DNA of 64,000 bases from Octopus vulgaris (taxonomy: Eukaryota): the NCBI GenBank assembly GCA_951406725.2, contig OX597815.1, forward strand, positions 154,876,001 to 154,940,000, written 5' to 3'. The position numbers and the translations under genes were made by a program. The number at the start of each line of letters is the position of its first letter. The stretch's first letter is position 1. Shown in pieces: positions 15,600 to 63,910 of this stretch. The notes beneath the pieces are model-generated. The model saw nothing but the letters and a program-made list of their open reading frames with translations, was not told the DNA's origin and searched no databases.

Positions 15600-16385
15600 T
15601 AATTTATCTAATTGTTGCATCTGTTCTATGTGTGGACAATATCTTAATCTCTATGTTATTGATTGATCCCCCGTGTTCTGTTCGGCGTGTTGGTACAGAA
15701 TCGATGAGCTTTTACCTTCCTTAAGTTGTCTCCAATGTTCATTCACCCGCTCTCCTATGCTTCTTGCCGTTTCCTCTACGTATGTTATTGTCTTGTTACT
15801 GCATCGTCCCTCTGTACATCTTATACTATAGACTACATTTCTGGCTTTACAGTTTGTTTGTGGGCTAAATCTACATACAGTGCAATACTTATCCGTACAG
15901 GGGGTTCTACTAAAAGGAAAGGTTCTACCAATTATAGATTTGATAGGGTTGCCTGGCTTTTCAACAACCTTAATTATTAGTTTAAGTTTATCTAGGGTCC
16001 TTCTAAAGCGGTACGCCAGTTCACTTCCAGGGGTGGTGTCAACGAACATGACACTCTGGTATTTATGGCTATCATACCAAGAGTTGGCTTTCCCTATTTT
16101 CTTTTTTGTCCTTTCTATAGTGTTCCATGACTTGTTCCTATAGAGTGGGCAAATCCCATTCCTATCATTACATAATATATTATCAAATTTCTTCATGGCT
16201 CCTTTGTATACTCTGATCCTTTCTTTATGGCTGTAACCTGAGAACTGCATGCGGTGAATGAAATACTGTATGTGTCTCTTTAATTCTGTAGGCTCGCACA
16301 TGCGTGACACATTTCTCGTTATTCTGACGAGGTCTGCCATCAAAATATTGAATTTGGCATTGCCCGCAATGGCTGAGTTCCGGAT
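15600..16385 (-). mobile_element. Penelope-like element fragment (RT thumb, Cys-rich linker, GIY-YIG endonuclease)
   Basis: ORF 15651-16343: SGYS...LYRNKSW...FVDTTPGSEL...KVVEKPG...CTDKYCTVC...CKARNVVYSIRC...YVEETARSIGERVNEH...LYQH. Confidence 0.85.
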
Positions 16386-16664
16386 CGATATATATATATA
16401 TCAAGAACTTCCATAGACACTTGTTGAAAGCGCCTTACAGCCAAATGCTGCGCAATGGGATCGAACAAGATACCAAGTAATTACAAACCGGTTTTCACGC
16501 ACACTGCTATATTTGTGATACATAGAGACAGACATTTACATACACACACACACATATATATATCCATTCATACATACACGCATAGATTTATACGATATAC
16601 CTATTTGTCTGTCTGTCTGTCTGTATGCTTGCATGTATGTATGCCTGTATGCATATATGTATTG

Positions 16665-25585: not shown

Positions 25586-25650
25586 ATCTTCGAAACATGT
25601 GTCGGAAGTAAATGAATTTGAATAACACCTGCGTTGAACTCCATTTATTT
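25586..25650 (+). ncRNA. Hammerhead 3' half plus tail, related to the 60361-60740 family
   Basis: CTTCGAAACATGTGTCGGAAGTAAA...GAACTCCATT versus CTTCGAAACATATGTCGAGAATAAA...CACTCCATT at 60673. Confidence 0.55.
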
Positions 25651-25954
25651 ATATATGTATATATGTATATATGTATGCATGTATGTATGTATATACATGT
25701 ATATACATATATATACTTACATATATACATACATACATACATGTATATATACATACAACTATATATATGTTACAGATAATCATCGTAGTTTCCTTACAGA
25801 AAACAGTGTAACTACGAGGGTGCATTTAATCACGAAATCTACTTTATCAGGAAGACCAAGGACCGTCTGAAAAGTCCTTAGGAAACTGGTTGTGATCCTG
25901 TTGTTGTATAAATATTGAGATGTATGTGTAGTCCTATGAGTATGAGTATATATG

Positions 25955-41244: not shown

Positions 41245-42519
41245 CGAGGGACGTTCAATAAGTAATGCCTCTGACCTACTTGCAGTTGTTTGATCTAGCT
41301 GAAACTTTGCATATGCAATCATTTATATCTCTATAGAGTACGTGGCAAAGTACAGCTCTGAATTAATTGTGGTTTCTGATTTACAGGTGTTTGAACCGAG
41401 TCAAGTGTGAAATGGAGCCTGTTGAGTGTCGAGCAGTGATCCGGTTTTTGTATTTGAAAGGACGCAGACCACGGGAGACTTTTGATGAAATGAAAGTAAC
41501 TTATGGTGATGATGCCCCATCATATGACCTTGTAAAACGCTGGCATCGTGAATTCAAACATGGTCGGAACTCTGTGGAAACAGCTCCCAGATCTGGTCGC
41601 CCCCTTGTCTGTCCGTCAAGTTGAGTCTGCCATTTTGGAAGATCGACGCATAATTATTCGCCAAATAGCCCATGAGGTCAAGATTAGTACCGGGTCTGTG
41701 GAAACTATCATTCATGACCATTTGCATATGCAAAAGGTGTCTGCCAGATGGATTCCCAGGTTGCTCACGCCTTTCCAGAAGCAAGAACGCGTCGAGTGCT
41801 CGAGGGTGAATTTGGAGATGTGCCTAGAAGATGAGTCAAAATTTTTCAAAAGACTGATTACACAGGATGAAACCTGGGTCCATCACTATGATCCAGAGAT
41901 CAAAGCCCAGTCAATGCAGTGGAAGCACCGTGACTCACCCCCTCCAAAGAAGGCAAGGGTGCAGCCCTCCGCTGGCAAGGTCATGCTCACAGTCTTCTGG
42001 GACCAGGACGGAGTAGTGATGACAGATTTCCTGGCAAAGGGTACCACAATTGCAGGAGCCTATTATGCTTCACTTTTGAAGAAATTAAGAGAAGTTATCA
42101 AAATCAAGAGGTGGGGCAAGATCAGCAAAGGCATCCTCCTCCTGCAGGACAACGCTCCGGTCTATAACTCGCTTGTCGCCAGATCAGAAGCACAGGCGTA
42201 TGGCTATGAACTCCTCCCCATCCCCCCTACTTTCCTGACCTTTTACCCTCTGATTTTCACCTCTTCCCAATCATGAAGTTGTTTTTGAAAGGAAAGCGTT
42301 TCCCAGATGATGCAGCCTTGATTTCTGAAGTCACGTTGAGGTTGGAGGACCAAGCTGGGTTCTTCTACAAAAACGGTCTCCAGAGCCGCATCAAAAAATG
42401 GGAGAAATGCGTAACTCTGGGTGGTTCCTAAGTAGAAAAAGACTAATAACTGTGCCAAGTTTCGTTGCTCTAATGCTATGGGAAGTGGGTCAGGGGCATT
42501 ACTTATTGAACGCCCCTTG
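41245..42519 (+). mobile_element. Full-length mariner (DD34D) DNA transposon
   Basis: TIRs CGAGGGACGTTCAATAAGTAATGCC / GGCATTACTTATTGAACGCCCCTTG with TA duplication on both sides; 1275 bp. Confidence 0.95.
41412..42446 (+). pseudogene. Mariner transposase, frameshifted
   Basis: MEPVECRAVIRFL...PRSGRP; WIPRLL; ITQDETWVHHYDPE; LLQDNAP; YFPDLLPSDFHLF in a shifted frame; at least two frameshifts and a late stop. Confidence 0.9.
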
Positions 42520-60167: not shown

Positions 60168-60212
<45 letters not shown>

Positions 60213-60407
60213 AGTAGTTGAATGAATTATCCTAGTATGGATAATTCGGTTAACCGAAACCCGGGTAGCAAATTCACGCCAGAAAACACGGTTGAAGCTA
60301 CATGACAAGGGCAGTGATCACGTGCTTTCGTGTGGAAATTTGTGTGTTTTTTTACTATAAATAAATGAAGGAATGGAGTTGAACGACGATTTAACAAAAT
60401 TCCTTTA

Positions 60408-60489
60408 TTCTCGACATATGTTTCGAAGACTGCATATTCCTAATTCCGAAGGAATAAAGGGTGCATACGCCGCCTTCTCATCAGGAAAG
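60408..60489 (-). ncRNA. Type I hammerhead ribozyme (left arm)
   Basis: Mirror of 60611-60693; tcatcag at 60478-60484. Confidence 0.85.
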
Positions 60490-60610
60490 ACAAGGAACTT
60501 ATGTCAGCATCATGACGAACAAAAACTTTTAGATGACTGCCCACACGGAGTCCGTGTGGGCAGTCATCTAAAAGTTTTTGTTCGTCATGATGCTGATATA
60601 AGTTCCTTGT

Positions 60611-60693
60611 CTTTCCTGATGAGAAGGCGGCGTAAGGCACCCTTTATTCCTTCGGAATTAGGAATATGCAGTCTTCGAAACATATGTCGAGAA
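60611..60693 (+). ncRNA. Type I hammerhead ribozyme (right arm)
   Basis: TTTC CTGATGA GAAGGCGGCGTA...TATGCAGTCTTC GAA ACATATGT C GAGA; predicted cleavage after C60688. Confidence 0.85.
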
Positions 60694-60748
60694 TAAAGGA
60701 ATTTTGTTAAATCGTCGTTCCACTCCATTCTTTCATTTATATATATAC

Positions 60749-60808
<60 letters not shown>

Positions 60809-63120: not shown

Positions 63121-63910
63121 TTTACTGAACGCTATTAATATTGTTTGAAACAATGTTATATGATATAACGTCAGAAGCAGCCTATAGAAAGAGGAGGGAT
63201 AAATAGTACTAAAACAGTTTGGCTAATTATTCCACATGGGAGATAAATTAAATCTAATCTCCCATTGCAGTTACGTCAGGCTATTATTAGGAATTTTCCA
63301 AAGAATTCTAGTTATTACTCTATTATCAACTCACATAGTTAGGATTGGTTTTTCCAACACAAAAAATCTTTTACAAATTATCTCTTCACATAATAACAAC
63401 CTGTTAAATATTGATACATTTACTAATACTAACATTAATTTAGCTAATACCATAAACCCCTCTAGAAATATCAATAACAAGGTTATTGTATCTGAAGTCA
63501 ATTCCAACAGAATTAAGTTTATGTCAAGTGACTCTAAAATTAAAAATTATATATACCAGTGTAAAATTATTACTCATAATAAAGTACAATTTTACATTGG
63601 AAGCACGTCGTTACAGTTATCTAAAAGAATTTATATCCATTACTCAACATTTAGGGATAGGAATTAACGTAACAGTACAGGGCTCAGTAAATTAATTTAG
63701 GATCTAAAAGATCATAATGAACAATTTAATTTAGAATGGTTGATTCTCTCAATCTCGATACCTTATGACAAAGGCAAGGAATTATGTCTTCTCTGTAATT
63801 CTGAACTATTTTTCATTATTTTTTCTAAAATTCCCTTAGTGAACACGGTTATAGAGTGTACATACCGATGTAAACATTGGCAAAAATACACCTTTAGTTC
63901 ATATAAGTAA
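63120..63910 (+). mobile_element. Penelope-like element 3' fragment (GIY-YIG endonuclease), second family
   Basis: YIYQC...FYIGST...KRIYIHYSTF; the frame continues past two stops to STGLS...LEWLIL...PY...CLLCNSE...VN...YRCKH, stop at 63908-63910. Confidence 0.85.

Follow-up and report, generated by a model that had tools for sequence, protein, structure and literature searches.

A head-to-head pair of retroelement ends in a (TA)n microsatellite

The window analysed here, a stretch of 64,000 nucleotides of the Octopus vulgaris genome (contig OX597815.1, positions 154,876,001 to 154,940,000), contains two inverted arms, at 60356–60549 and 60551–60745, that are 97% complementary around G60550 and differ at 6 of 195 columns, with a 1-nt indel among the differences. 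A first-pass annotation of this DNA described a near-perfect palindrome with a hammerhead motif on each strand, and this description holds, the cores being present on both strands; the head-to-head orientation proposed there, with the 3' ends facing outward, is borne out by mapping of the arms to a Penelope-like element (PLE) reference. The symmetry that was read into the element, however, is not there: the left arm extends beyond the palindrome by another 148 nt and reaches 60208, where the (TA)n starts, making the locus an asymmetric combination of a long left arm and a short right arm.

Reference coordinates refer to L065:4380-6905, a natural copy whose short 3' end lies near position 2378 and whose long one lies near 2526. 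The long arm (60208–60553, minus strand; reference 2180–2523) is a 5'-truncated pLTR of a Hydra-clade PLE that reaches up to the long 3' end, and is 91.5% identical to the 3' pLTR of the near-full-length copy L197. The short arm (60547–60745, plus strand; reference 2180–2378) is a 5'-truncated pLTR that ends at the short 3' end. The 148 nt between the two ends (60208–60355, minus strand), hereafter the tail, were overlooked in the earlier note; in full-length copies, the tail continues into the 5' UTR, about 50 nt ahead of the ATG. A 9-bp hairpin (GAAUUAUCC / GGAUAAUUC; 60224–60247, minus strand) directly precedes the long end and is a candidate landmark of a start site. The target microsatellite is evident in the sequence on both sides, as (TA)n at 60175–60208 on the left and at 60738–60757 on the right, where it is followed by (TG)n.

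At the centre, the 1-nt loop between identical breakpoints that had been proposed gives way to an overlap: the two arms share 7 nt on the element's own near-self-complementary heptamer GGAnTCC (GGAGTCC at 60547–60553), with a microhomology of 6/7. The 27-mer spanning this centre occurs at one locus in the entire 2.8 Gb genome. The locus is almost certainly a dead head-to-head pair of 5'-truncated Hydra-clade PLE ends inserted in (TA)n. As such, it is ordinary debris of a known class of retroelements, from a new family but in an arrangement that has already been published.

The parent element and its clade

The arm is a high-copy repeat, with 2433 first-look candidates when used as a query of the genome, and a 29-mer of the ribozyme has 453 exact genomic sites. 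The near-full-length parent L197 consists of an inverted short arm, a truncated 5' pLTR, the tail, the ATG some 50 nt past the long end, the ORF, the 3' UTR and a 3' pLTR that carries the long end. Its ORF has 800 open codons from the ATG, with YRDD and YIG among them, and one stop before the last ~100 codons. This single ORF, combining an RT that contains YRDD with a C-terminal GIY-YIG, and the hammerhead motif in the pLTR are the hallmarks of an EN+ PLE; the link to PLEs suggested in the first-pass annotation is correct. The RT region is 36–41% identical to nine database proteins, and a Pfam search with the parent ORF gave no RT hit and a weak match to GIY-YIG (E 0.012) below the cut-off. 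Partial-tandem pLTRs, an adjacent inverted 5'-truncated copy and the tail are present in L196, L197, L200 and L201.

According to PMC8557442, the Hydra clade is defined by RW(K), DKT in place of DKG, and CxxC and CxH around conserved E and N. The parent ORF has RW at 37 and DKT at 122, and C..C.SE...N...C.H is found in L065 and L200; (TA)n, the preferred target of the clade, abuts 174 of 190 ends and would mask any target-site duplication. By virtue of these motifs and targets, the family matches the Hydra clade as delineated there. The CxCX5C linker between RT and EN is absent from L197, L200 and L065, which contain instead an Asn-rich stretch (~30% Asn), and is present in the homologues P0003–P0006. 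The most fitting designation for the family is that of a derived Hydra-like member, an assignment made by motifs and by comparison by eye with the supplement of PMC8557442. The copies L197, L065 and L200 thus belong to a PLE family that targets (TA)n without the cysteine linker that the same source ties to (TA)n targeting.

Other elements also reside in the window. A decayed fragment of the ORF of a second, more distant Hydra-like PLE, covering the GIY-YIG end (63245–63855, plus strand), has 65–76% DNA identity to L197 and a much shorter Asn-rich linker. A short, old fragment of the same pLTR family (25587–25662, plus strand; ~75% identity) spans the region from the GAAA strand to the short end and is followed by TA-rich repeats. 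There is also a reading frame for a mariner-type transposase (41536–42273, plus strand; Pfam Transposase_1, E 2e-22) and a 249-codon open stretch (15654–16400, minus strand) that, by eye, resembles the thumb region of another PLE clade and has no Pfam hit.

The hammerhead motifs and the function of the window copy

The hammerhead motifs occupy 60400–60497 on the minus strand and 60603–60701 on the plus strand, and each arm presents, in order, CUGAUGA (60484–60478, minus; 60616–60622, plus), a long stem II, GAAA, the palindromic ACAUAUGU and GUC. The string GAAA-CAUAUG-UC ends at 60688, so that cleavage is predicted after 60688 on the plus strand, the very position named in the first-pass annotation, and after 60413 on the minus strand. 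In the right arm, stem I comprises 4 bp, an internal loop and 6 bp, stem II is long and branched, and stem III is a 2-bp palindrome (ACAUAUGU); the type I core, with CUGANGA, GAAA and UH, and stems I–III are all there.

A search of the window against Rfam yielded no hits at the gathering threshold, hammerhead included, and at the E-value threshold only sub-threshold matches, mostly to microRNA hairpins caused by the palindrome and none to a hammerhead; the motif was therefore tested directly in the genomic copies. Across 29 aligned copies from several subfamilies, with identity down to ~65–70%, each core position is conserved in at least 26, with the free core position 7 altered in the most distant subfamily. 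The named fold leaves 90% of the cells paired compared to 30–47% in slid controls, and in stem II three pairs have changes on both sides. None of 500 shuffles reaches the covariation score, but the count of covarying pairs is as high in 174 of them, so that covariation support for the fold is modest. The hammerhead search that the annotation had proposed is accordingly negative with Rfam and positive by direct counts of core and fold, which uphold a type I hammerhead with a palindromic stem III. Given the 2-bp stem III, self-cleavage is predicted to be weak and dependent on dimerization or protein, judging from PMC4209133 and PMC11167929.

The same annotation went further and envisaged a bidirectional cassette that cleaves itself and is polyadenylated, which could in principle be functional and amplifying. 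In its favour, neither core is disrupted, and each cut site is followed by AAUAAA. However, intact cores are to be expected anyway at a divergence of ~1.5–2%, and AAUAAA (60692–60697) belongs to the 3' strand of stem I, is found in only 17 of the 29 copies, and the copies end in (TA)n, not poly(A). Furthermore, the centre is unique in the genome, promoter-like motifs are truncated away from both arms, and the read-through transcript is predicted to fold into a single hairpin of ~190 bp (−340 kcal/mol), which would block the ribozyme by sequestering it and could at most feed double-stranded-RNA pathways. A cassette of this kind is very improbable, and the window copy probably has no function.

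Sister loci combine one long and one short end

We sampled the family by taking the first 100 listed sites of the 29-mer in genome order, which fall into 89 loci, 82 of them usable; the seven left out are four duplicates of a pair and L129, L134 and L152, with less than 84% identity. At least 49 of the 82 loci harbour head-to-head pairs, a lower bound because some apparently solo copies (L114, L179) have partner stubs below the length filter. A long end is combined with a short end in 46 of these 49 pairs, and no pair has two long or two short ends. When all sets are taken together, the same holds for 66 of 76 pairs, and the other 10, which are cut by the locus edge, internally rearranged or truncated, include none with like ends. 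The long copies L078, L070, L196, L197 and L200 obey the rule at their outer ends, and so do older subfamilies, for example, L134 and L111. Solo short-ended copies are common in the family.

The centres of the pairs vary among loci, from within the tail to deep in the ORF. The question raised in the annotation, whether copies of the arm share a centre, is thus answered in favour of variable centres, and the palindrome in the window is not an amplifying one. In L196, the main copy (L196:1191-4718) is exactly one circularly permuted monomer, extending from reference position 2380 across the ORF as far as 2378, as though synthesis had halted at the upstream short site; this is a single case.

The window locus itself is known from the assembly alone and could in principle be a fold-back artefact of assembly or library preparation. 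This is extremely unlikely given the differences between the arms and the 148-nt extension of one of them, the 66 loci with the same architecture and different centres, and contigs of two further public runs (X17, X4), in which tail and pLTR are joined on opposite strands. In the contigs of the four runs compared, no joint corresponds to a presumed intron of the 5' UTR, a result that carries no weight in either direction.

The two arms of a locus share template variants

At eight common variable columns, the two arms of a locus carry the same variant in 179 of 185 comparisons, which is about the level that later mutation alone would leave. The share is 97 of 102 in nested pairs and 82 of 83 in those that snap-back of a single cDNA could not have produced. 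At column 2294, the arms agree in 34 of 34 cases compared to 19.1 expected. For the 37 pairs that overlap over at least 40 columns, the arms within a locus differ by 3.0% compared to 5.0% for shuffled partners, with none of 2000 shuffles as low. Later gene conversion between the arms can be rejected as the source of this concordance because, among locus-unique changes, 8 are common to both arms and 158 are unshared.

Geometry and junctions of the pairs

The 66 long-short pairs differ in geometry: in 27, the arms overlap barely or not at all, in 19, the short arm reaches further in the 5' direction, and 20 are nested. A simple snap-back cannot directly make the geometry of 46 of the 66. An identical CAT/ATG junction occurs in L132 and L156, where it is the long arm that is trimmed, and in L012, where it is the short one. 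Of the 66 junctions, 33 are clean enough to score; 15 of the 25 clean junctions without an insertion show microhomology of at least 3 nt, compared to 5.8% expected, and the insertions of 6 nt or more (n = 12) mostly copy adjacent arm sequence. Microhomology together with templated insertions is the expected trace of the joining of two free cDNA ends. Ageing of pairs by central deletion is unsupported because nested pairs are not younger (divergence of 1.9% vs 1.5% and 1.5%; p = 0.12). Long arms stop at the short site in 4 of 28 cases (p = 0.04), a weak effect at a site that lies on an A run.

The 5' ends of the arms pile up at reference 2161–2187 (33 of 124 arms; of the adjoining stretches of 61 nt, the preceding one has 4 and the following one 17). 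Directly upstream of this pile are TGACGTCA, a TATA-like motif and an initiator-like TCATTA, found in 68, 61 and 67 of 78 distinct copies, respectively, which we take to be promoter-like motifs; the pile would probably correspond to the 5' end of the element RNA. A second, smaller pile (13 of 124 arms) is located at reference 2240–2259, in the area of the CUGAUGA core and the beginning of stem II. At the ribozyme cut there is no pile, with 1 of 132 arm 5' ends, and this near-absence is consistent with an uncut template.

Proposed twin priming on a single RNA

Twin priming in LINE-1 yields a head-to-head product with the 3' ends outward, from one RNA and two target-derived primers, and with microhomology at the junction; the internal site used by the second primer varies, and there is little overlap between the pieces. 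The octopus family differs in that both starts are fixed and the arms overlap in 39 of the 66 pairs. We infer from the finished insertions that each of them was probably made by twin priming on one element RNA, with the ends of the tail as the two starts and joining by microhomology. Under this model, the (TA)n target would be cut and both 3'-OH ends would prime on one RNA, one at each boundary of the 148-nt tail, a protein dimer possibly serving both starts in one event. Both cDNAs would then extend toward the 5' end of the RNA, and where the arms overlap, the trailing enzyme would displace the leading cDNA, with the result that one stretch of RNA would be copied twice; such strand displacement has to be assumed for the 39 overlapping pairs. 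The cDNA 3' ends would finally anneal by microhomology and be filled in. At the window locus, both cDNAs would have ended close to where the RNA probably begins, and their GGAGTCC-3' ends would have paired at 6 of 7 positions, each being filled in on the other. A near-perfect palindrome would thus appear when both cDNAs stop at one self-complementary motif, and the hammerheads would be passengers.

Several features of this model have precedents. With a purified PLE protein, the two target strands are each cleaved and extended, and synthesis starts at two internal RNA sites that bound the tail; the protein is predicted to be a dimer, and ribozyme cleavage is not required (PMC11167929). In the same study, Frangieh et al. 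saw no difference in start site between the strands, and pairing within one event is not addressed. In the literature that we searched, consisting largely of papers outside subscription, we found none that applies twin priming to PLEs or tests the haplotype or geometry of the arms. The origin of tandem and inverted PLE insertions and of the one-sided tail is stated to be open in PMC8557442, PMC3846280 and PMC11167929.

The snap-back or hairpin-capped origin that the first-pass annotation had proposed assumes that the copy of one strand folds at a palindrome and is recopied up to the short site, with central deletions blurring the symmetry; self-priming, on an antisense template, has been published as a hypothesis (PMC3846280). 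It accounts for the variants shared by the arms, and the window locus along with 19 other pairs is nested, some centres are palindromic (TGCA in L163, GGAnTCC in the window), and central deletions could likewise leave microhomology. Nevertheless, 46 of the 66 pairs would need an additional deletion, nested overlaps hardly outnumber reversed ones (20 vs 19), nested pairs are not the younger ones, and none of the 76 pairs is short-short or long-long, although solo short-ended copies are common. The window locus taken alone is compatible with snap-back, but even there it would have to start from a stem of just 3 bp around a loop of 1 nt. The data argue against fold-back as the general mechanism, and we consider this explanation unlikely.

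Similarly improbable, in our assessment, is twin priming on two templates of the same haplotype, with a protein dimer whose asymmetry would impose a long start on one side and a short start on the other. The templates could be two transcripts of the source copy active in the cell or the 5' and 3' pLTRs of a tandem transcript, full-length copies having two pLTRs. Overlapping arms would then form without strand displacement and the shared variants would fit, but an extra rule is needed to preclude like ends (0 of 76), and many variant combinations coexist in the PLE family. Variants cannot separate one RNA from two RNAs of the same source copy; the end rule alone favours one. According to yet another scheme, the two ends are not RT starts but endonuclease cuts that resolve a double-stranded DNA intermediate (PMC8557442). 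Both ends do lie in TA-like sequence resembling the target, and the tail is present at one end only. Against this stands the finding that the tail boundaries of another PLE are two RT start sites in vitro (PMC11167929); furthermore, non-overlapping arms are not explained by cuts alone, and we regard the scheme as quite unlikely.

Returning to twin priming on one RNA, we lean towards the broader proposition that PLEs integrate by obligate twin priming on a single RNA, with one target end per tail boundary. If true, this would explain the one-sided tail, the inverted 5' copies and the palindromes at junctions, and would replace the self-priming hypothesis. A single RNA would then serve the PLE protein for writing the two sides of a double-strand cut, which differs from the usual priming of one strand first. 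What this young octopus family adds is a countable test: the long-short rule is strict, the template is shared, and for the most part the geometry excludes self-priming as published. Its 148-nt tail makes the two starts unusually easy to distinguish. The exact start sites are predicted (reference 2378 and 2526) and can be used for an in vitro assay on the Hydra clade.

Comparison with known systems

The closest relatives are the EN+ PLEs of the Hydra clade, including Hydra-1_Obim, as described by Craig et al. (2021; PMC8557442). The octopus family resembles them in the single RT-GIY-YIG ORF, in RW, DKT and GLYRDD, in the C-terminal CxxC..E..N..CxH, in the pLTR hammerhead and in the (TA)n targets. 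Hydra-1_Obim is a separate family, as its protein and hammerhead differ upon comparison by eye with the supplement of that paper. The octopus family is also larger (~3.56 kb and ~900 codons, compared to under 3 kb in the clade), has an Asn-rich linker in place of CxCX5C while retaining (TA)n targeting, and has a long, branched stem II. The Asn-rich stretch recalls the N-rich inserts of rotifer Penelopes (PMC3846280).

The animal non-LTR retrozymes (bioRxiv 10.64898/2026.07.22.740005; PMC7229834) are similar to the window locus in being non-coding, carrying type I hammerheads and being related to PLEs. Retrozymes, however, are tandem direct repeats, whereas the window locus consists of two fragments of a coding element in inverted orientation. 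We considered and rejected a non-LTR retrozyme because inverted pairs and solo fragments were found in place of tandem direct repeats of a hammerhead monomer.

PLE insertions with an inverted 5'-truncated copy and a one-sided tail of 30–40 bp are on record (PMC8557442; PMC3846280), and Schistosoma PLEs contain dual hammerheads on opposite strands, 100–700 bp apart (PMC4209133). The architecture of the published inverted insertions is the same as that of the window locus. The differences lie in the tail, which is 148 nt long in the octopus family compared to 30–40 nt, and in the ends, the published tail being "often at one end" (PMC8557442), in contrast to the strict long-short rule found here.

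Mechanistically, the nearest system is PAc (Poseidon, Anolis; PMC11167929), which shares with the octopus family two fixed 3' ends downstream of the hammerhead and AT-rich targets. PAc likewise runs through the uncut ribozyme, as the octopus copies apparently do, with a single 5' end of 132 at the cut. The two start sites are not linked to inverted insertions in the parts of the PAc study considered here. In the octopus family, unlike in PAc, the sites are located in the 5' UTR, 148 nt apart, each with a few bases that match the (TA)n primer.
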